A DNA stretch of 64,000 bases from assembly GCA_958296135.2 (NCBI GenBank), contig CATQHZ020000001.1, positions 3,872,001-3,936,000 of the forward strand, given 5' to 3'. Numbering within the stretch: position 1 is the stretch's first letter; the number at the start of each line of letters is the position of its first letter. The translations under genes were made by a program, and so were the position numbers. The notes under the pieces were generated by a model. It was given only the letters and a program-made list of their open reading frames with translations, ran no database searches and was not told the origin of the DNA. The stretch is from an uncultured Poribacteria bacterium (GTDB lineage Bacteria; Poribacteria; WGA-4E; WGA-3G). Positions 15,995 through 39,599 of the stretch are shown piece by piece.

Positions 15995-16156
15995 GTGAAC
16001 ACTCTATTCCGCGCGGATTATCCGATTCGCCTGCAGATATCTGTGAAAGCGACGCAGCAGCCGCCCTGGCTGCGCGCCGTATCCACGTTTGCGTTTGCGC
16101 GTCCCGTTGATGATGCCCTAGACCAGATTACCCCCCCCTCACTTTACGCCAGTTAA
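15995..16156 (+). CDS. Putative leader ORF (53 aa) containing a C8 tract
   Basis: AAGGAG RBS, GTG start, MNTLFRADYPIRLQ...DQITPPSLYAS. Confidence 0.35.
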   Translation: MNTLFRADYPIRLQISVKATQQPPWLRAVSTFAFARPVDDALDQITPPSLYAS

Positions 16157-16591
16157 CCCTTGATAGACTCGGCAGGAAGGGGCTCCGGGGGGATATCCTT
16201 GCTCGCAATTCCAACATAAAAAACCGCGCGCGGTGCATGCGCGCGACTCACATTGCTCCGTGGCAACCGCTCACGTTCGCGTGGACGCGGCTGCCACGGG
16301 GCTTTTCGCGTTGCACCGACGGCTGCAACGTCGAAGTCCACCAGCGTTGTTCTGGGGAAATTTCTGTCCCCACTAGGGATATAAAGGGGCAGGATAACCG
16401 TGGGCCTCCGCCCACGGTTACCCTGTTTTCTCCGAGACTGCGCTACCTGCTGCGCTCCACTGCAATCGGTGGGGCGGAGACGGTATTATCGGGACCAGAG
16501 GTCCCTCCTACTCTTCATGTTTCCGCCGCAATCGGTGCGGCTGAAACCCCCTATTCATTTTATTTCATTTTTCCAAGAGGAGAATTTTCCT

Positions 16592-19500
16592 ATGAAAAGG
16601 CATTCCATCTTTTTCTTATGTTTGCTGCTCGTCGTCGGGATAGTTTCGATGCTCGGCATACCGACAGATGCCTACGCAGCAATAGTCATAGACACGATTG
16701 AGGTTTGGGTGAATCCGGATATGGTGGCCACAACCTCAGAAGATAACACGCCTAACACAATTAGCACGGACTTGGGCTATGGCGCGAATCCGGCTTCAGG
16801 GCAGATAGTCGGCGCAGCCAACGCAGCTCGGCTGCCTAAGTTTGTTGCAAGCACCGGTTTTGCAAACGGTACGCTGAGCGGCGGGACAAAAGTGACCGCG
16901 GCCAACGCAAGTTCAACCACAGCGGTGTTTGGGGACACAATTGCGATTGTGATTAACATGAGCGAATCTAGTAGCAACCTAGACTGGCACTTCGGAAGTA
17001 TACTGATACCGGGTTATGATGGATGGGCAGGAGGAACCCGAACCTTGTATGCTAGCCGCGCTCTTGCAGCACCAAGCGCACCCCTGTATAACCTGAATCT
17101 ATCAGATGCCTCACTAGTTTATGCCTTTACGGTGAGGGCGGATGACTACGACACTGATGGCGGTTGGTTTACGTTTGCTAACGGTGCCTCGCCCTTTAGA
17201 GTAGACGCAAACACCGCACCTCCAGACGGGGGGTTTGACCCAGCCGCCATCCACTACCCCATAGTGGATGGCGGTGCCCCGAATCTGGCAGCGGCAGCCG
17301 AATTCCCGGTGAAGTTCGTTGGTGCCCCGACCCATACCGGACCGTCCCGCTATTACCAGGTGCGCCAAGAGTGTCTCCAATATCACGGTCTCTTCGGCGA
17401 CGCTTACACGACTGCATGCACTTTGGTGCACACGCATGGTTGGGCCCTTGCCGACGAGGTGAATTTGGACAATAGCCCGCAAGCCGCCTTTTACGGCCTA
17501 GGCGACACCATTGCAATTCAGGTGACGTTTAGTAAATCCGTCATCGCCGACGCTGGTGTGACGCTGAAGGTGCAACCCCCGTTCGGCGGATCGGAAACGT
17601 TGTTTGAACTCACCGATGCGGATAGGACTGACGGAGATAAAACGCTCACCTTCCGATACACCGTGAAAGCGGGAGATCGGAAGTTCAGTAGCATCGATAT
17701 CGAGGACCAAAATCTGAGGCATAATACCCGTGCTAGTCGGAATTCTGAAGATTTTATTTTAAACCCGAAGCACATAAGGGGCCAGGGTGGCATCTCTTTT
17801 GATTCGGATTTGAGGTTTACTCACGATTTTGAAACGCCGCTTCGGGCGTTTCTGATCAACGAGCCTATGCTCAGCAGTTGGGAGGATGCGAGTTATAAAT
17901 ATGGGGATTCCGACGCATATGCCGATGAATACGCCCTGGCGGTCATCAAGCACCTTGTGGATGCTGTCCCGCCGACGGTGTGGATTGCCGGCTTGATAAA
18001 GAATGGGGAGACGCACACCGAGGATAGGCGCAACGCGATCGTCAACCTGGATCCCAGTGCATCTGGGTTCCCTGTGACAGATTTCGCGGCAGAGATTACG
18101 GAGTCGGTGTCGCAGTCTGGCGCGTTTGACGTTGAATTCCGCTTTACGAACCATTACAAATCGGATGGTGCCCTCGCCGAGGAAATCGGGACGACGTTTG
18201 GCGCGGAGGACATCGTCCTCACCGATGCAGCTGGGAATTCGCTGGACTGGACGGTTGCTGCCCCGGTTTACATTGGGCTTGACCATCGTGCAGCACAGAA
18301 TTATGGTGACACGACGCCTCCCGATGGGCATGCGCCCGGTGATGCGAAGGGTTCAGCGTCGTTCCTCGTCTACAAAGCGACGATTACGCCGCCGTTCGGT
18401 TTCGTCGGCGATGTCACTATCGCATTGCCGGCGGGTGCCACGATGGACATTGCGGGCAACGCCAGTCTGGCATCGAATACGTTGACGGTGCCGGTGGACA
18501 ATCCGTTGCGCGTGGTGGAACCGCCGGAGATTGTCGAGCCCCCCGCGGGTGTCTATACCGCCGGGGATAAGATTGAAGTGTCGGTGACGTATGCCCAGGA
18601 GAATCTGCGGTATGAAGGGGCGAACCCGCCGTATCTGGTGGTGTATCTGGGTGAACAGGTGTTAGCCAATGCGCGGCATGCTGTTTGGACAGCGGCGGCA
18701 GCCACAAATTCAACAACAGTGACATTCGCGTATACGGTGGCAGCCACGGACACGGTGACGGATGCAGTGCGTGCTCCCTCTGTCGAGATACTGGTGCCGG
18801 AAGAAACGACGTTGCTGTCTGGGCCCCTAGGTGCGCCGGATGGGCAGCAGGTTGGGACAGCGGCACCAGCTGTTGCGTCTGGTGCTGCGCCGGCCTCGGT
18901 GCCGGTGTTAGCCCCGGTGGAAAATACGTCTGGGCGGGAGGTTGCGCCTGTCGTCCGGAAGACACCGGTTATACCGGTTGTGCCGTTTTTCCCCGAGGCG
19001 GCTTCGCCGAAGGCTGCTGCGTCTGCTGTGCCACGTTCGCCCATTGTTTTCAACGAGTTGGGCAATGGCAGCGGTGCTGCAAACGACTGGCTGGAGCTCC
19101 GCAATGTCACGGGTTCGGAGGTATCCCTGAAAGACTATGAGCTTTCGGTTGTGGCCGATGGGCAAAAGGAAGATACATCGCTCGTCGTTTTCGCGGATGT
19201 GAGCGTGCCGGCCCATGGGCTCTTACTCATCACGAACAGTGCGCCGGATAAAACGCCGCTGGCAGGTGGTGAGCAGAGAGGGTTGTCGCATGCGTTTTTG
19301 GTGGATGCGGGGCTCTCGCTGCCGGATGATGGGAAGTTCCTGTTGATTCTGCGGAACGCGAAGGAGAAACTCGGTATGAACGAGGCATTTGTCGATGTCG
19401 CCGGTGGCGGTGGCAGTGACACGGATGCGTTCGTTCGCGAGCAGACAGGGGACTATGATACATACGTGTGGCCGTTGCAAGTGCTACAAGCTCCCGGTGG

Positions 19501-20695: not shown

Positions 20696-20726
20696 ATGGA
20701 GGGCGGGGCTGTGCCTCGCCATGTAG

Positions 20727-20765
20727 AAAACGGCCGTGGCCCCTTGGGGCTGCGGCTGTTTTTTT
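20727..20765 (+). terminator. Intrinsic terminator
   Basis: Hairpin ACGGCCGTGGCCCC/GGGGCTGCGGCTGT followed by a T run. Confidence 0.7.
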
Positions 20766-20784
20766 CGTGCGTGATGGTAAAAAG

Positions 20785-21390
20785 GCCCTTAGTCCGTAGG
20801 GCGCGGTCCTGTGCCGCGCCATGCTGCGGTAAAAAGGGCCCCTTCTACCGTCGGGCGAGGGCCGTCACGGTCACGCCTACAGAAAACGTGCGTGTGTCGC
20901 TTCGCGAAAGCACGCTACCTTTAACTTTGTCATCTCTGCAGCCTCGCTGCAGAGATGTCCACTGTCCCTCGCCGTGCCTCGCGCGAACGATCTCTGGCGC
21001 GAGGTAAAAAGGGGCCTTTCTTGTCGCGTGGACGATCGCGAGGGGAACCCTCGGCGATTAGTGATCGCCGGGCCCTCGCGCTACGGTGAAAGGGGCCTCT
21101 TTCGCGCGTCGGTGAAAAGGCCCCTTGTCCCGTAGGGCGCGGTCCTGTGCCGCGCCATGCATCGGTGAAAAGGCCCTTAGTCCGTAGGGCGCGGTCCTGT
21201 GCCGCGCCAGGCATCGGTCTATCGAGAGAGATCGCGAGGGACAGGCCCTCGCGCTACGGTGAAAGGGGGGCTGTTTGGGAGGTCAGGCCCTCGCGGCGGA
21301 CAGGCCCCCGCGCTACAGTGAAAAGGGGCCTTCGGTTAAAAGGCTCCTTAGTCCGTAGGGCGCGGTCCTGTGCCGCGCTATGCTTCGGTC
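20785..21390. repeat. REP-like mosaic array, including a nested ~125-bp element
   Basis: Same units as 14796-15830. The element at 20847-20973 recurs at 42422-42548. Confidence 0.88.
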
Positions 21391-21429
21391 TGTAGAGAAG
21401 ATGAAGGAAATTTGTCATTTTTTCAAATT

Positions 21430-22968: not shown

Positions 22969-23048
22969 TTCATGTTTCATCAGACGTAGCGCGAGGGAAA
23001 ACCTGTCCCTCGAAATCATCAAAAATACGGAGGAACTAACGCCTGTCA

Positions 23049-24167: not shown

Positions 24168-24233
24168 TCCTTGAAACCGGTAGGGCGAGGGAAACCTGTC
24201 CCTCGCCATGCCACAGACTAGCAAGGCAACGTC

Positions 24234-28369: not shown

Positions 28370-28452
28370 TTATTCGATAGTTGAAAAATGGCGAGGGGAA
28401 CCCTCGGCGATTCGCGTTCGCCGGGCCCGCGCCCTACGGAGCTACGATGGGC

Positions 28453-31064: not shown

Positions 31065-32948
31065 ATGAATACATATCATGTTGAGCGTATTGATGCGCTT
31101 GAAGTTCGGGTTGAACGGGTAGAAGGCTTTTTGGAGCAGATTGTTGCGAACGTCGCTGTGCTCGCAGAAAGCCACGTGAAAATCGATCAGAAGGTTCAGG
31201 TGCTTGTGCAGCAGGTTGGACAACTCGCCCAAGTTGTTGACACCCTTTCCAAGAGCCAAGCGCGAACCGCTGAAGAACTACGTGAGATGCGTATCGCCAC
31301 CGAGCGTGAAATATCGCAACTTCGCGAAAGCCAAGCGCGAACCGACGCACGCTTTGAGGCACTCGCCCAGCGCGAGGTAGCGCGCGACAAACGCAACGAG
31401 CAGCGCGATGCAGCATTCAACCGGAAATTGGACGCTCTCGCCGAAAACCAAGCGCGAACCGATGAACAACTCCGGGAGATGTGTGTCACCGTGGCGCAGG
31501 AGATGGCGAACCTCCATGAAAATCAAGCACGAATCGATGCGCTCTTTGAAGCAGCCGCCCAACGAGATGCAGAACGCACCGAACAAAATGCCGAACGCGA
31601 CGCGGCATTCAACCGGAAATTGGACGCAAGCGATGAAGCCCGAGCCCAAGCCGATGAAGAATACCGCAAAAGCCGAACCAATGCCGAAAGGGAGATGGCT
31701 AAACTCCGCGAAAGCCAAGCACGAACCGACGCACTCTTTGAAGCAGCCGCACAGCGAGATGCAGAACGAGACAAACGCGAAGCAGAACGAGCCGAACAGC
31801 AAGCCGCACGCGACATAGCACTTGACCGGCGACTTGAAAAAATCGCCGCAGACCGAGAGAAAGCCAATCAGGAATACGCTGAGATGCGAGCCAACGCCGA
31901 ACGAGAAATGGCTAAACTTCGCGAAAGCCAAGCACGAACCGACGCACTCTTTGAAGCAGCCGCACAGCGAGATGCAGAACGAGACAAACGCGAAGCAGAA
32001 CGCAACAAACGGGAAGCGGAACGAGCCGAACAAGAAGCCGCACGCGGCACGGCATTCGACCGGCGACTTGAAAAAATCGCCGCAGACCGAGAGAAAGCCA
32101 ATCAGGAATACGCAGCACTCCGCGAAAACGCCGAACGAGAAATGGCTAAACTTCGCGAAAGTCAAGCACGAACTGACGCACTCTTTGAAGCAGCCGCACA
32201 GCGAGACGCAGAACGAGACAAACGCGAAGCAGAACGCAACAAACGGGAAGCGGAACGAGCCGAACAAGAAGCCGCACGCGGCACGGCATTCGACCGGCGA
32301 CTTGAAAAAATTGCCGCAGACCGAGAGAAAGCCAATCAGGAATACGCAGCACTCCGCGAAAGCCAAGCGCGAACCGATGCGCTCTTTAAGGCAGCCGCCC
32401 AACGCGATACAGAACGCACCGAACAAAATGCCGAACGCGACGCACGATTTGAGCGGCAAATGGAGCAACTCAACGCGAATCGGGAACGGGCGGATCGAGA
32501 ACTTGCTAAGCACAGCGAGAACCTCGCACGATTGGAAGCAATGTTTGAGGCAGCCGCCCAACGAGACGCAGAACGCACCGAACAGCAAGCAGCCCGCGAC
32601 GCGGAATTCAACCGGAAATTTGACGAAATCAATGAAGTCCGAGCCCAAGCCGATGAAGAATACCGCAAAAGCCGAACCAACGCCGAACGAGAAATGGCTA
32701 AACTTCGCGAAAGTCAAGCACGAACTGACGCACTCTTTGAGGCAGCCGCCCAACGAGACGCAGAACGCACCGAACAGCAAGCAGCCCGCGACGCGGAATT
32801 CAACCGGAAACTGGACACACTCGCCGAACTGAAAGCGGCACTGAGCCCTTGGAAACTGCTCTTTGGAATCATCGCCACCGTCACAGTCACGCTCCTCCTG
32901 ACAACGCTCGGCGGAGAAGTTATCAAGTACCTCTCAACGCTGTTTTAG
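31065..32948 (+). CDS. Long repetitive coiled-coil protein with C-terminal TM anchor
   Basis: Repeated 'ESQARTDALFEAAAQRDAER' modules, 234-bp DNA repeat, hydrophobic C-terminus, upstream TTGACA promoter at 30942. Confidence 0.85.
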   Translation: MNTYHVERIDALEVRVERVEGFLEQIVANVAVLAESHVKIDQKVQVLVQQVGQLAQVVDTLSKSQARTAEELREMRIATEREISQLRESQARTDARFEALAQREVARDKRNEQRDAAFNRKLDALAENQARTDEQLREMCVTVAQEMANLHENQARIDALFEAAAQRDAERTEQNAERDAAFNRKLDASDEARAQADEEYRKSRTNAEREMAKLRESQARTDALFEAAAQRDAERDKREAERAEQQAARDIALDRRLEKIAADREKANQEYAEMRANAEREMAKLRESQARTDALFEAAAQRDAERDKREAERNKREAERAEQEAARGTAFDRRLEKIAADREKANQEYAALRENAEREMAKLRESQARTDALFEAAAQRDAERDKREAERNKREAERAEQEAARGTAFDRRLEKIAADREKANQEYAALRESQARTDALFKAAAQRDTERTEQNAERDARFERQMEQLNANRERADRELAKHSENLARLEAMFEAAAQRDAERTEQQAARDAEFNRKFDEINEVRAQADEEYRKSRTNAEREMAKLRESQARTDALFEAAAQRDAERTEQQAARDAEFNRKLDTLAELKAALSPWKLLFGIIATVTVTLLLTTLGGEVIKYLSTLF

Positions 32949-33040
32949 CAAACCCAACAGGCGGCGCGCAAAACGCCGCCCCAAATCGACAGGGCGGATG
33001 TCGCTACCCGCCCAACTCATACCGAAAGGAACCATCAACC

Positions 33041-35910
33041 ATGGCACGAAATAGACGGAATACACCGCAGACGCGGCCATACCATCACGAAACCGAAACC
33101 CGAACGAACAACCCATCCGTTGGGCTCGGTGCCGAAGGGGATATCACTGAAATGCCACAAGCGGAATACTACTACAACCCGCATCTCCAACCCATCCTCC
33201 GTTTCAGTTCAGACAATAAGACCCCCCCCCTGCTCAACAAATATATAGTATAATCCAAGATGCGCAACAGCGGCCCCTGACCGCGGACGAAGCACAGCAG
33301 CTGACAGACGCGCTCCACGCGCAGCCGTGGCTCGAATGGGCAAACAAACGCGAGGAAGGCGCGACATTCACCGTAGACCCGGTCTCGCTCTTCATACACG
33401 AACGCCTCAGCGCGCAAGCCATCCTCGAAACCGCCAAACGGAATGACATCCAACGCGACCTGTTCGCTGATCCGCAGCAGAAATATCGGGATGCCGTGAA
33501 ATTCTACGAGCACGATGTGCCGTGGTCCAACCGGCTCATCCTCGGCGATAGTCTGCAGGTGATGGACTCACTCGCGCACCGCGAAGGCCTGGCAGGCCAG
33601 GTGCAAATGGCATACATCGATCCGCCTTACGGCATCAACTTCCGCTCTAACTTCCAACCGGAGGTGTTTGATATGGGCGGCGCCGACAGTGATAGACACC
33701 TCTCGCGCGAAGTGGAACAGATTAAGGCGTATCGCGATACGTGGGAACTCGGCTCCCATTCCTACCTCTCCTATCTGCGGAAACGGTTTGTCGTCACTCG
33801 CGAACTGCTCAAGGATTCAGGGAGCATCTTCGTGCAAATAAGCGTTAAGAATGTCCATCAGGTGCGTTGCTTGCTGGACGATGTATTCGGGGCGGACAAT
33901 TTTGTGGCGGAAATTATCCTGAGAACGCGCAGCACCTCCACGAGTAAGTACCTATCAACCCTAAACGACTTTATCCTCTGGTATGCCAAAGACCGGGAGC
34001 AATTGAAGTTTCGTCAACTGTTCTTGGAGAAGGTGCCTGATAAAAGTAGATTCTCAAAGGCGGAATTGCCAACCGGTGAGATAGTGTCGGCCTCCGCCAC
34101 GCAAAGTTTATCCCAAAACTCGGAACTTTTCACAACCAGTAGTCTGTTCTCTACTTCCGGTGGAAAAAGAGAGAACCAAGTCTTCACCTTCCGTGGTAAG
34201 GAATATAGGCCTTTACCTCCGAGAGGATGGAGGTGCAGCCTTGAGGGATTAGAGAAACTCGCAAGAGCGAACAGGTTAATCCCACTTGATACCAATCTAG
34301 GCTATAAGTACTACTTTATTGACTCGCCCTACACGGAAGTGACAAATCTTTGGAGTGAGCAACTCTCCGAAATAAACAAGATTTATGTAGTGCAAACCAA
34401 CACAACTGCTGTCCAGCGTTGTATGCTGATGAGCACCGACCCGGGCGACATTGTCCTAGATCCGACGTGCGGCAGCGGCACCACGGCTTACGTTGCAGAA
34501 CAATGGGGACGACGGTGGATAACCATCGATACTTCTCGCATCGCAATAACTCTCGCGCGCACCCGTATCCTTACGGCGACGTTTGATTACTACAAACTCA
34601 ACGATGAAACGAAGGGCATCGGCGAAGGGTTCATCCTTGAGTCGGTTCCACACACGCAACTCAGAGACATCGCGAACAACATCGCGCTAGAACCCATCTT
34701 TGAGAAGCACGAACCGATAATAGCGGAGAAGCTAGCCGCTCTCAACGCCGCCTTAAAAAGCGTTACGCCCGCGCTAAGAGAACAACTCAAACTGAAACTG
34801 CGAAAGAAAACGAAACGTGAACTGACGGAAGCAGACCGGCGACGATGGAATTTGCCTGAAACGGCGTGGGAAGAATGGGAGGTGCCGTTTGACACCGAAC
34901 CCGCGTGGCCCGAGGCGTTGCAGAAGGCGTTGACAGATTTCCGGAAAGCATGGAAAGCGAAGATGAAGGCGGTTAACGACTGCATCGCCGCATCAGCAAA
35001 GCAGGAGAAACTCGTCGATCGTCCCGAAGTCCAGAAGGACCTGCTGCGCGTGAGCGGCCCCTTCACGGTAGAGGCGGTGCAACCGCCAGCGGAGTCGTTG
35101 GACGTGGAAGCACGGCATGGCGAATCAGATACGGAGCCGGCGAACGCCGCCGCGTACCTGGAGCGGATGGCGCAGCTACTAAAAACAGACGGTGTCCACT
35201 TTGAAAGTGAACACAAGAATTTCGCACGATTTGAACTGCTGACAGGAGACATTCTCTTTCACGCAGAAGGGCAGTTTGAGGATGATGAACGCGACGTAGG
35301 GGTTGTGTTCGGGCCACAGCACGGGCCCGTAAATGCTTTAATTGTGGAAGAATGCTTGTCGGAGGCGCGCCGCCACTACGATGTGCTGCTGTTCGCAGGC
35401 TTTCACTTTGAAGCGGAGGCACAGGCGATTATTCAGGACAAGCACAAACGCGTGCAGACACATCGCGTGCAAATTGCACCGGATATCGCAATGGCGGACT
35501 TGCTCCGGCACACGCATAGCGATAAACTTTTCACCGTCATCGGCGCACCGCGAACAGAGGTGGAGAAGACTGACGATGGGCAATTCTTTGTCAAGATGGA
35601 AGGCATGGATACCTACAATCCGGTCGATAACACAATCGAACCGACGCAGGCGGATAAAGTCGCGGCCTGGTTCTTGGATACAGATTACGACGGCCGCACC
35701 TTCTGTCCCACGCAATCGTTTTTCCCAAATAAAAAGGCGTGGAATAACATCGCGCGCTCGCTGAAAACAGTCATTGATGAGGAGAGCCTAGCGGCGTTCT
35801 CGGGGATAGAGTCGCTCCCGTTTGCCGCGGGCCAGCACAACCGCATCGCCGTGAAGGTAATCGATCGGCGTGGAAATGAGTTAATGAAGATTCATAGACT
35901 GTCCGCTTAA
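33041..35910 (+). CDS. Type III Mod-like adenine DNA methyltransferase, frameshifted at a C9 tract (33222-33230)
   Basis: DPPY motif IV, then a TRD, then 'VLDPTCGSGTT' motif I (beta class). The ATG at 33041 with RBS reads into C9 and stops at 33253. The catalytic frame is open from the tract onward (…QPWLEWANKRE…LFIHERLS…). Confidence 0.88.
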
Positions 35911-36103
35911 CCGTAGCGCGAGCGCCTCATATGGCGCGCGAAGAACAGGCCCGCGCACGACAGGGACTCGCGCTGCGGAACCTGACAGCCGCAATTTATT
36001 TGCAATTTCCCGCAACATGTAGTATAATTAGTTCATCATTCATTCGGAGGACGAGGGACAGGTTTCCCTCGCCCTACGGTGAAACTAGAGTAAAGGAGCA
36101 ATT

Positions 36104-38816: not shown

Positions 38817-39599
38817 ATGATGCTAACTTCCGCGAGGCACATCACTACTGTACTGCCGTGGGCAATCCTTTTCGGAATCCTCGGGGCATGGGAAGCCGGG
38901 GTGCATATTTTCAACACACCGCACTATATCTTGCCCACGCCTTCCGACATCGTCGTGACGCTCTTTGAGAAGCGAGCCCTGTTGCTGAAACACACGCTCG
39001 TCACGCTGGAAGAAATGTTGCTCGGCTTTGCGCTCGCCGCGGGCATCGGCATTCCGCTCGCCGTGCTGATGTTTGAATTTCCGGTGCTAGAGAAGGCATT
39101 CTATCCCTATGTCATCGGTTCGCAGACGGTGCCGGTGTTCGCCATCGCGCCGTTGTTGGTGCTGTGGTTCGGCTACGGCATCGCGCCGAAAGTCATCATG
39201 GCCGCGCTCATCGTGTTCTTCGCGATGGTGCTGAATACATTAGACGGGTTAAAGTCTGCCGATCCGGATACGGTAAACCTCTTCCGGATCTTGCGGGCGA
39301 ATCGGTGGCAGATTCTGTGGAAAGTCCATGTGCCATCCGCACTCCCGTCTATTTTCACTGGTGCAAAAATCGGCATATCCATCTCGACGATTGGTGCGGT
39401 GATAGGCGAATGGGTAGGCGCAAGCGCAGGCTTGGGGTATCTCATGTTGTACGCCAACGGCCAACTCCAAGTTGCACTGGTTTTCGCGGCGATTTTTTGC
39501 CTAACACTTTTAGGCCTGGGACTTTTCGGGCTGATGACGCTGTTGGAGGCATACGCTATGCCGTGGCGACGCGCATCAGCACGTCAATCCCGAACATGA
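38817..39599 (+). CDS. ABC transporter permease, ThiX/SsuC-like (thiamine precursor uptake)
   Basis: 'ILPTPSDI', 'QTVPVFAIAPLLVLWFGYG' and 'GAVIGEW...GLGYLM'. Lies downstream of the TPP riboswitch. Confidence 0.88.
   Translation: MMLTSARHITTVLPWAILFGILGAWEAGVHIFNTPHYILPTPSDIVVTLFEKRALLLKHTLVTLEEMLLGFALAAGIGIPLAVLMFEFPVLEKAFYPYVIGSQTVPVFAIAPLLVLWFGYGIAPKVIMAALIVFFAMVLNTLDGLKSADPDTVNLFRILRANRWQILWKVHVPSALPSIFTGAKIGISISTIGAVIGEWVGASAGLGYLMLYANGQLQVALVFAAIFCLTLLGLGLFGLMTLLEAYAMPWRRASARQSRT

Follow-up and report, generated by a model that had tools for sequence, protein, structure and literature searches.

Why would a bacterium keep a Type III DNA methyltransferase gene (mod) that has no neighboring restriction gene (res) and whose reading frame is broken at a run of nine cytosines? 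We address this question for an uncultured Poribacteria bacterium (assembly GCA_958296135.2; genome G000), in which the gene lies on contig CATQHZ020000001.1, forward strand, between positions 3,872,001 and 3,936,000. This whole stretch of 64,000 nt is referred to as the window, and all positions below are those of the window. To our knowledge, work on phase-variable methylases has been confined almost entirely to pathogens with small genomes. We found no description in the literature of phase-variable methylase switches in sponge symbionts, in agreement with the initial annotation of this DNA, which knew of none in this presumed sponge-associated lineage. Here, we propose that the res-less mod has been kept as a slippage-switched, solitary N6-adenine methyltransferase, a reading that we consider reasonably probable as a whole. 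The nine-C run itself is most likely an on/off switch of the kind found in pathogens, driven by slippage.

Organization of the mod locus

The gene is divided between two reading frames that meet at the C run (Table 1). From the ATG at 33041, translation of the C9 allele gives 70 codons, MARNRR...DNKTPPLLNKYIV, before a TAA; the identical 70-aa peptide is recorded on five contigs (protein database search). The downstream frame opens directly after a TAA at 33217–33219 and ends with a stop codon at 35908–35910. The frames overlap only over 33220–33250, and the C run falls within this overlap. Adding one C (C10) or removing two (C7) fuses the two frames into about 956 codons. For this gene, the frame is maintained at C7, C10, and C13 and lost at other lengths; C8, for example, leads into the third frame and an immediate stop. 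The initial annotation had described the same arrangement, i.e., an ATG frame that enters C9 and stops by 33253, with C10 or C7 restoring an intact DPPY/TCGSGTT enzyme that it put at ~955 aa.

The N-terminal motif, R.NNP..G...Y.YNPHL.P.LRF, is also found in full-length relatives with 56–76% overall identity (alignment A1). An active short form initiated at GTG 33496 is unlikely, because its product would drop 19 columns upstream of that codon that are invariant among 17 relatives (alignment A1). A 627-aa ORF located 5′ of mod has no match in Pfam, NCBIfam, or PADLOC, and a promoter scan found no sigma-70-like site 5′ of 33041.

Table 1. Features of the mod locus, in window coordinates
Feature	Position	Strand	Evidence or remark
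mod N-terminal segment, first 60 codons, upstream frame	33041..33220	+	Translation; motif found family-wide
C9 homopolymer, putative frame switch	33222..33230	+	Within length-variable linker; PPP if in frame
TAA at which the C9 (OFF) allele stops after 70 codons	33251..33253	+	Translation
Open frame of 896 codons and a stop; predicted Type III Mod, a beta-class N6-adenine methyltransferase	33220..35910	+	PF01555, 3e-32
First canonical in-frame start past the tract, GTG	33496..33498	+	804-aa product, minus about 150 N-terminal residues
Motif IV, DPPY	33619..33630	+	Sequence; invariant in alignment A1
Target-recognition domain (TRD), motif IV to motif I	33913..34419	+	AT-richer; mosaic among alleles
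Motif I, DPTCGSGTT, AdoMet binding	34459..34485	+	Sequence; alignment A1
Candidate PD-(D/E)xK nuclease-like fold in C-terminal extension	35134..35541	+	AF2 model and VIA-align
Candidate C-terminal Ig/fn3-like beta-sandwich	35542..35907	+	VIA-align, Z about 7–8, a range that may reflect common arrangement alone
Short spacer in place of res	35911..36103	.	blastn collinearity with relatives

A Type III Mod without its Res

The predicted product of the fused frames is a full-length Type III Mod. It matches the PADLOC MTase_III profile PDLC03632 (3.4e-156) over positions 129–982 of 983; the PF01555 match covers both catalytic motifs, with a long insert between them; and the best PDB sequence matches are Mod chains, namely 6k0w (1.2e-21) and EcoP15I Mod (4.9e-15). 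Pfam gave no match to PF12564, the N-terminal Type III methylase domain, in this mod; one paralogue in G000 does have it. As in the Mod chains of EcoP15I (4zcf) and 6k0w, motif order is DPPY, then TRD, then FxGxG. Unlike the Poribacteria protein, these Mods work with Res, have no repeat gating, and lack the Poribacteria family's conserved N-terminal 150 residues and C-terminal domains; similarity to them is confined to about 160 residues in the motif IV region. Mods of the EcoP15I type are 620–640 aa long and have no counterpart of the 440-aa C-terminal extension that brings the Poribacteria protein to about 956 aa.

Neither the N-terminal stub nor the C-terminal extension has a match in Pfam or NCBIfam. 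The AF2 model of the extension has a mean pLDDT of 84.6, and its candidate nuclease-like fold comes from VIA-align, with matches to NucS (2vld; Z 10.1 and an rmsd of 2.4 for 99 residues), AF1548 (Z 8.9), LlaBIII (Z 8.0), and FokI (Z 7.0). Foldseek returned nothing for this model at E ≤ 0.001, and no conserved acidic/lysine triad was seen in the nuclease-like fold.

The initial annotation called the gene an orphan for want of an adjacent res, and comparison with relatives upholds this. Pfam annotation of the window neighbors revealed no res near mod; the next gene, 194 nt 3′ of mod, encodes a TAXI solute-binding protein (Pfam). By contrast, a ResIII ORF of 934–976 aa adjoins mod at each of the five loci of close orthologues that were examined (G002, G004, G009, G005, and G027); of seven family loci that are more distant, four have a ResIII gene within a few genes of mod. 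The additional genes that separate mod from res in these distant relatives have no PADLOC match. In blastn alignments with G002, a relative of the same genus, 166 nt of G000 take the place of 4875 nt that include a ResIII gene. The sister species G001 likewise lacks res, with mod followed by the TAXI gene, and its spacer aligns with that of G000. Elsewhere in G000, the closest Res homologue shares 57% identity and sits beside a paralogous mod. Because res is present in the orthologues and missing in G000, mod qualifies as a true orphan: by these comparisons, a Mod by descent and a predicted solitary methylase in its present state.

Length alleles of the C run

The initial annotation had called for tract lengths to be compared across MAGs, and comparison among relatives reveals both ON and OFF states. 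Frame was scored at 8 of the 30 loci compared, those that matched the N-terminal motif pattern. At the tract site, G000 has C9 (OFF), G001 C9 (OFF), G002 C8 (ON), G004 C8 (OFF), G009 C9 (OFF), and G005 C6 (ON); in two further orthologues, the tract is absent. Across three genera, the run has kept its position, at lengths of C6–C9. Length differs even between near-identical genes, since protein P0002, 98% identical to the G002 protein, reads as C9/OFF and G002 itself is C8/ON.

Protein clusters extend this range. One 90%-identity cluster includes six sequences whose first 61 residues are identical and whose tails differ: ...TPPFTNV, ...TPPLHK, ...TPPPSQ (949 aa, ON), ...TPPPFTNV, and ...TPPPLHK. 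These tails fit a common downstream DNA preceded by C8 to C12, lengths deduced from the proteins. Of the 50 members listed for four clusters, 7 are full-length ON forms, found on 15 contigs, and 14 are stubs of 67–71 aa, found on 42 contigs. One in-frame C10 allele, P0138 (957 aa), occurs in the G001-type cluster. A search with the 70-aa stub gave only five clusters because most stubs cluster with full-length proteins. Searching for the exact 35-nt upstream pattern in the genome contig collection returned only G001 and G002; neither this pattern nor a degenerate version matched anything in the metagenome contig collection.

Within the G000 population, variation is less apparent. Contigs from four runs of one sample, the only one in which this organism is present, all have C9 with no gap at the tract, although contigs hide minority variants. 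They show no differences over 1069 nt at depths of 52–131, with the proviso that the runs are perhaps of the same data type, and no length variant at the tract was seen among the indels listed for them. No ON allele of the G000 species itself was found. Thus, the phase-variation reading of the initial annotation gains ON and OFF length alleles among relatives; inside this population, only C9 is seen at the contig level. Over 33824–36000, the X3 and X4 contigs have one unplaced 1-nt gap. No RNA run containing the locus was listed.

The homopolymer is a feature of the DNA rather than of the protein. In the long ORFs of G000, none of 148 PPP triplets is encoded entirely by CCC, which accounts for 22% of proline codons. 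A need for PPP at the protein level was considered as the cause of the run and rejected, given this codon usage and the SPLPHV-type linkers that occupy the site in other clades.

Selection on the res-less gene

One alternative to a retained, switching methylase is a dead gene: once res was lost, mod would have become useless, been inactivated at the position most prone to mutation, and begun drifting toward loss. The missing res is compatible with this, as are the OFF state of the representatives of both res-less species and the excess of OFF stubs over ON forms among the listed cluster members. The pattern of substitution, however, argues otherwise. Between the two res-less species G000 and G001, dN/dS is 0.14–0.15 (dS 0.48–0.73), as against 0.12 between G000 and the res-bearing G002. 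Similarly, the ratio of nonsynonymous to synonymous changes on the G000 branch (60/102, 0.59) is near that on the branch of G002, which has kept res (58/109, 0.53). A point against retention is that constraint is weaker over the N-terminal 59 codons (N,S = 13,11 and 13,9). No second stop or frameshift occurs across 956 codons in either G000 or G001, leaving the tract as the sole lesion, and the in-frame P0138 allele belongs to the G001-type cluster. The initial annotation had set against phase variation the case of a fixed C9 with other signs of decay; no such decay was found. By these measures, the gene is not decaying and is under purifying selection. We therefore regard a dead gene as unlikely, with the variant that inactivation may have been very recent.

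Exchange of the target-recognition domain

GC content is 0.44–0.49 in the TRD and 0.53–0.60 in its flanks, so the AT-richness suspected from the initial reading is real. The initial annotation had further suggested comparing TRD alleles, and these form a mosaic, with several TRD alleles on a conserved backbone. P0005 and P0002 are 98% identical before the TRD, 49% within it, and 87% after it; conversely, P0026 and P0004 are 65% identical before, 83% within, and 64% after. P0011 carries the TRD of P0005 (91%). This pattern points to exchange of TRDs between backbones.

G/C runs across the genome

The mod tract is one of many. For lengths of 6 to 10, G000 has 568, 62, 28, 44, and 10 G/C runs, and 3027, 776, 185, 13, and 6 A/T runs, the latter declining smoothly. 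Across 61 genomes compared, the number of G9 runs varied from 0 to about 200. G000 has 84 G/C tracts of at least 8 bases, 42 of which were annotated; 27 are in methylase or restriction genes and 8 more in seven giant LTD/fn3/cadherin/LRR surface-protein genes. Sixteen of the 27 methylase/restriction-gene tracts are at out-of-frame junctions, with 10 needing +1 nt and 6 needing −1 nt to restore the frame. Besides enzymes of the Type IIG, Type ISP, and DUF1156 kinds, G000 has 68 PF01555 hits. A G/C run of at least 8 bases is found in 20 of 62 PF01555 genes, against 1.65 tracts expected. In two other methylase genes, tract length likewise differs between relatives. This excess of G/C runs is visible genome-wide only. 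Within the window alone, runs of C8 or longer are no more frequent than chance allows: the three pattern matches compare with a mean of 1.8, and a count of three is attained in 26 of 100 shuffles.

The pattern resembles the poly-G/C contingency loci of Campylobacter jejuni and Neisseria, where many G/C runs of 8–10 bases, with a modal length near 9, occur in few gene classes, i.e., restriction-modification and surface proteins. It differs in that one Poribacteria genome has so many tracts in methylase/restriction genes and in giant proteins. mod would be a further case of a known switch type, in an unusually large set of contingency loci. The mismatch repair genes mutS1 and mutL are present in G000, so switching may be slower than in Campylobacter.

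Tract length in the assembly and in the transcript

The C9 of mod could be read as a homopolymer error of the assembly, in which case the true tract would be C10, the gene intact, and nothing in the population OFF. The assembly is near-closed (4 contigs, one of 5.01 Mb) and long-read-like, and such assemblies may miscount long runs; the G/C peak at length 9 (44, versus 28 at length 8) is odd; and 16 methylase/restriction genes are broken right at runs. However, the corrections needed go both ways, both among these 16 genes and in mod itself, where orthologues G004 and G009 need −1 nt, which argues against any single length bias. Separately assembled contigs from the four runs agree on C9 (albeit from one sample and perhaps one data type), and a C9 that breaks the frame recurs in G001, a fragmented assembly of 210 contigs. 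Distinct length alleles each recur on several contigs, and even a C10 in a coding region would be hypermutable. We consider assembly error to be very unlikely.

A further alternative accepts the C9 and invokes recoding: either RNA polymerase would slip on the C run or ribosomes would shift by −1 there, yielding some full-length enzyme, with the tract tuning its level. Long homopolymers promote transcriptional slippage, and the C run is suitably positioned inside the frame overlap. Yet the shift needed is not constant, being +1 nt in G000 and G001 and −1 nt in G004 and G009, and in-frame alleles exist; recoding is correspondingly improbable as the main explanation. Programmed ribosomal frameshifting as a designed mechanism is rejected, because the orthologues need shifts in opposite directions.

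A proposed slippage-switched solitary methylase

We return to the preferred reading, slippage switching of a retained methylase. A Type III mod would have parted from its res and been retained as a solitary N6-adenine DNA methyltransferase. The poly-C run, which follows the first 60 codons in a linker that is not conserved, would change length by slipped-strand mispairing during replication, with C7, C10, and C13 giving the full 956-aa enzyme (ON) and other lengths the 70-aa stub (OFF); the assembled population would be OFF (C9). When ON, the enzyme would methylate a TRD-set motif across the chromosome, such that sub-populations differ in methylome. One outcome could be altered gene expression (i.e., a phasevarion). 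Alternatively, the handling of incoming or outgoing DNA or phage by the community's other restriction systems could be altered. That this strain switches reversibly, that the enzyme is active, and that there is any regulatory effect are all inferences. The dominance of OFF forms among the listed cluster members (42 contigs versus 15), together with 16 of 27 tracts out of frame, is also compatible with a systematic error in tract length or with widespread silencing.

In the 2018 REBASE survey (Atack 2018, PMC5909438), nine-base mononucleotide tracts switch at about 1e-3, and a mononucleotide repeat of nine or more bases serves as the criterion for a phase-variable mod gene. Here, nine Cs lie inside the ORF and changes in their number shift the frame. 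The phase-variable mods of that survey resemble the Poribacteria gene in being beta-class Type III Mods with a homopolymer of at least nine bases in the ORF, conserved 5′ and 3′ parts, a divergent, central, allele-defining TRD, and a strain-variable tract (Atack 2018, PMC5909438). They differ in their hosts and their context: rather than a small-genome pathogen, the Poribacteria host is an uncultured lineage whose genome of 5.2 Mb retains intact mismatch repair; res is physically gone in G000; and the Poribacteria switch is a prediction from sequence. The same survey raised the question of why environmental bacteria have such genes (PMC5909438).

If the preferred reading is true, this would be a clean natural case, in an uncultured animal symbiont, of a methylase and its slippery run being preserved together across species. 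That both were kept after the restriction partner was lost argues for a role beyond self-protection from a cognate nuclease.

More tentatively, and with more doubt than confidence, we suggest a combinatorial, stochastic methylome, in which the 27 tract-bearing methylase/restriction genes and the seven giant eukaryote-like surface proteins are switched singly and the res-less mod is the regulatory end of the set. Held by purifying selection through a speciation event with no restriction partner, mod would then serve as an epigenetic switch, a true phasevarion, in a non-pathogenic, large-genome, mismatch-repair-proficient animal symbiont. If so, each cell of the lineage within a sponge would carry a different mix of methylation marks, defense specificities, and surface proteins. 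The distribution of the 27 and 8 tracts suggests that heterogeneity within populations in methylation, defense, and surface proteins could be a major strategy in a dense, phage-rich sponge microbiome. Lastly, gene callers split such genes, as seen from database entries of 797 aa and 70 aa, and inventories of defense and methylase genes in metagenome-assembled genomes of this kind will be distorted as a result.

A methylase gene broken at a poly-C tract

The orphan Type III Mod-like methylase gene, mod, consists of two reading frames whose only overlap contains a run of nine C's (see table). Translation of both frames agreed with the anatomy described in the initial annotation: the upstream frame crosses the tract and soon stops, and the addition of one C (C10) or the removal of two (C7) fuses both frames into about 956 codons. 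Runs of eight or more C's are not beyond chance in the window (three pattern matches against a mean of 1.8, with 26 of 100 shuffles reaching three), so the significance of the tract has to come from other evidence. The proposed candidate phasevarion stands as a gene structure broken at C9 and best read as a slippage switch; probably, this is a slippage-gated Type III Mod without its helicase partner gene (res), caught with its tract out of frame (OFF).

The 60 codons 5' of the tract carry the motif R.NNP..G...Y.YNPHL.P.LRF, which also occurs in full-length relatives of 56–76% overall identity. In a protein alignment (A1), the tract falls in a length-variable linker between this motif and the next conserved block, and a product begun at the first canonical start codon in frame beyond the tract would lose 19 columns that do not vary across 17 relatives.

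Coordinates of mod and of the other features discussed (window positions unless a contig of the source genome, C1 or C4, is named)
Feature	Position	Detail
Upstream frame of mod	33041–33253	ATG 33041; 70 codons; TAA 33251–33253
C9 tract	33222–33230	
Downstream frame of mod	33220–35910	opens directly after TAA 33217–33219; 896 codons; stop 35908–35910
Overlap of both frames	33220–33250	
First canonical start after the tract	33496	GTG, in frame
Target-recognition domain (TRD) region	about 33800–34550	GC 0.44–0.49; both flanks 0.53–0.60
Own-sample contigs over the tract	32781–33849	1069 nt each
Extra base in mod, sequencing runs X3 and X4	somewhere in 33824–36000	contigs one base longer than the window; X1 and X2 contigs not
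Hairpin-like sequences	36040–36075	CGAGGG...CCCTCG
Element of ~30–40 nt	C1 about 39085–39130	locus L031:740–785
Methylase/restriction tracts (examples)	C1:39277, 171076, 1313638, 1866091, 2822657, 4205321	
Giant-protein tracts	C1:268329, 2331378, 2933748, 3492933, 3733660, 3733822, 4228170, 4477656	4228170 mid-gene
Adjoining C runs	C4:7759–7864	17 and 88 C's
C8 run	16131–16138	at start of ORF 16114–16698 (195 codons)
Contig depth peaks	about 20700–21400, 22985–23012, 24180–24211, 28388–28440	summed depth about 9,000–31,000

The encoded protein

The long frame matches PF01555 (N6_N4_Mtase; 3e-32) and has a long insert that is preceded by DPPY and followed by DPTCGSGTT. It also matches PDLC03632, the PADLOC model for Type III methyltransferases (3.4e-156; profile positions 129–982 of 983). 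By sequence, its best relatives of solved structure are Mod chains (6k0w, 1.2e-21; EcoP15I Mod 4zcf, 4.9e-15). In a word-indexed protein search, all 8000 scored candidates had E ≤ 0.001, with a typical length of 950–990 aa; the few that carry a name are labelled Candidatus Poribacteria site-specific DNA-methyltransferase.

No Pfam family matches the 440-residue C-terminal extension. The extension matches 2257 cluster representatives (E ≤ 0.001) and, among the matches listed, forms the C-terminal end of full-length proteins of roughly 850–1100 aa, many of the listed matches being shorter fragments. Foldseek returned nothing at E ≤ 0.001 for an AlphaFold model of the extension (442 aa; mean pLDDT 84.6). 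VIA-align placed model residues 185–320 on PD-(D/E)xK nucleases (NucS 2vld, Z 10.1, rmsd 2.4 over 99 residues; AF1548, Z 8.9; LlaBIII, Z 8.0; FokI, Z 7.0) and residues 321–442 on Ig/fn3-like sandwiches (Z about 7–8). The nuclease-like domain is probably non-catalytic, because the invariant columns of a second alignment (A2) include no conserved acidic/lysine triad.

Preservation of mod

Signs of decay other than the tract were sought, and mod has no stops and no frameshifts in 956 codons. Its dN/dS is 0.14 (463 codons, dS 0.73) and 0.15 (610 codons, dS 0.48) between the two res-less species, and 0.12 between the source genome, G000, and the res-bearing G002. With G004 as outgroup, non-synonymous/synonymous changes number 60/102 on the G000 branch and 58/109 on the G002 branch; the N-terminal 59 codons are less constrained (13/11 and 13/9). 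A dead gene is the alternative that survives best, as a very recent knock-out, and we think it unlikely; the intact codons, low dN/dS and similar branch counts make long-standing pseudogenisation unlikely.

Tract length among relatives and in the source sample

A search of 61 related genomes gave a match at E ≤ 1e-50 in 36, from which 30 loci were taken; eight were scored for tract and frame, the other 22 having no match to the N-terminal motif pattern. Comparison of tract length across genomes revealed C6 to C9 at the same site, with both in-frame and out-of-frame alleles. The tract is OFF in G000, G001 and G009 (each C9) and in G004 (C8), and in frame in G002 (C8) and G005 (C6); G021 and G027 are in frame with no tract. 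The restoring change differs by lineage, being +1 in G000 and G001 and −1 in G004 and G009. A protein from another assembly, P0002, shares 98% identity with that of G002 across 896 residues, and its N-terminus is the out-of-frame reading expected from a C9 run.

Similar variation was found within four 90%-identity clusters. The 50 members listed (no more than 15 from any one cluster) include seven full-length forms that begin MAR... (15 contigs) and 14 stubs of 67–71 aa (42 contigs). Six sequences of one cluster are identical over their first 61 residues and end in TPPFTNV, TPPLHK (twice), TPPPSQ... (949 aa), TPPPFTNV and TPPPLHK; these tails fit one downstream DNA with C8, C9, C10, C11 and C12, lengths that derive from proteins, not DNA. 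The G001-type cluster has a C9 stub on 14 contigs and also an in-frame 957-aa form.

Sequence of the G000 organism was found in one sample only. A miscount of the homopolymer, with C9 wrongly called, seems improbable: each of four sequencing runs of this sample yields a contig over the tract with no differences and no gaps relative to the window (depths 131, 123, 53 and 52), a C9 consensus at contig level, where minority lengths stay invisible. The identical 70-aa stub is recorded on five contigs, and no in-frame allele of the G000 species was found among database sequences and own-sample contigs. Recoding at the tract is equally improbable.

Loss of res

In the window, mod is preceded by a 627-aa ORF that has no Pfam match and followed by two TAXI solute-binding genes. 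Twelve family loci were surveyed for res in 7-kb flanks. A 934–976-aa ORF with a ResIII match adjoins mod in all five close orthologue loci (G002, G004, G009, G005 and G027), and a ResIII gene follows one to three extra genes in four of the seven more distant loci (G011, G060, G038 and G043); no ResIII gene lies within these flanks beside the G033 copy, the G052 copy or the intact G000 paralogue. Throughout the region G000 is collinear with G002, which belongs to the same genus, and the distance from the mod stop to the TAXI gene is 166 nt in G000 versus 4875 nt in G002. The claimed absence of an adjacent res is thus borne out by neighbour content and collinearity. Elsewhere in G000, the best-matching Res homologue has 57% identity and adjoins a paralogous mod. 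In G001, another species of the genus, mod is directly followed by a TAXI gene across a spacer that aligns with that of G000, so the res-less state is probably shared by descent.

In three distant relatives (loci L073, L074 and L077, in G011, G060 and G038), one or two conserved genes of 369–462 aa, with no Pfam or PADLOC match, lie between mod and res. GC-rich hairpin-like sequences flank the missing-res site, and two lie behind the mod stop of G002. An element of ~30–40 nt recurs dozens of times in G001 and G002, partly as arrays with a spacing of about 52 nt; if it is the same as the hairpin-like sequences, it might have mediated the res deletion.

Exchange of recognition domains

The TRD had been described as AT-richer than its flanks, and GC content confirms this. 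Comparison of TRD alleles showed a mosaic: identities before, in and after the TRD are 98%, 49% and 87% for P0005 versus P0002, 92%, 91% and 88% for P0011 versus P0005, and 65%, 83% and 64% for P0026 versus P0004. These segment identities indicate that recognition domains are exchanged among backbones, a pattern also seen in published series of mod alleles.

Comparison with known systems

According to Atack et al. 2018 (PMC5909438), repeats are present in 662 of 3805 Type III mod genes, with up to four repeat-bearing mod genes per genome and examples in environmental species; the mononucleotide-tract criterion is nine bases, and the switching rates cited for tracts of this kind are 1.8–13.5 × 10^-3. 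The modH, modJ, modL and modU genes described there are G[n]-gated with TRD alleles, so the mechanism proposed for the Poribacteria mod is a known one. Consistent with the earlier claim of novelty in this lineage, the literature searched contained no report of phase variation in either Poribacteria or sponge symbionts. The most notable features are the size of the tract set within one genome and the preservation across species of an orphan, apparently switch-bearing methylase.

G/C runs across the genome

G/C runs of 6 to 12 bases in G000 number 568, 62, 28, 44, 10, 1 and 1, respectively; A/T runs fall smoothly. Among 84 G/C runs of 8–15 bases, annotation covered the 42 next to large ORFs (53 ORFs in all). 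Methylase or restriction genes hold 27 of these (20 PF01555, five Eco57I-type, one Type ISP and one DUF1156), giant LTD/fn3/cadherin/LRR proteins hold eight, and seven are next to other genes. The 5.2-Mb genome has 68 PF01555 (N6_N4 DNA methylase) matches, an unusually large methylase complement; 20 of the 62 full-domain genes carry a run, versus 1.65 tracts expected by length (binomial probability 2e-16, with paralogues not independent). At 16 of the 27 methylase/restriction tracts, two ORFs, each at least 100 codons long, would become one if a single base were gained (ten tracts) or lost (six). Among the 148 PPP triplets in long ORFs, none is CCC CCC CCC. Beyond the mod tract, these genes contain 26 other runs of 8–10 bases, 15 of them at out-of-frame junctions of two ORFs (each at least 100 codons), in Type IIG Eco57I-like, Type ISP, DUF1156 and canonical Type III mod genes and in an N6_N4_Mtase+Mrr_cat family with seven members in G000.

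Conservation of the tracts varies. A canonical Type III mod paralogue keeps its tracts in three genera (G8 to G10). In a Type IIG gene, the run is C9 in G000 and C7 in G002, and is interrupted in G001. An 898-aa paralogue family has a tract, always out of frame, only in G000 (G10, G9) and G002 (G11), its six copies in five other genomes being intact and tract-free. G9 counts among the 61 related genomes range from 0 to about 200, in fragmented and closed assemblies alike; mutS1 and mutL are present in G000. The seven giant tract-bearing proteins (1210–2074 aa; lamin-tail, fn3, cadherin or LRR domains), which are eukaryote-like surface proteins, may also be phase-variable; seven of their eight runs lie near the gene 5' end.

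The adjoining C runs on C4, a 15-kb contig of 60% GC, may be an assembly artefact or mark a foreign contig. Lengthening the C8 run in the window by one C would extend its ORF, which has no PADLOC match, by 55 codons upstream. The contig depth peaks stand over a baseline of roughly 40–60 (X3, X4) and 100–130 (X1, X2); dozens of joints link the four places, which points to a short interspersed repeat with very many copies.
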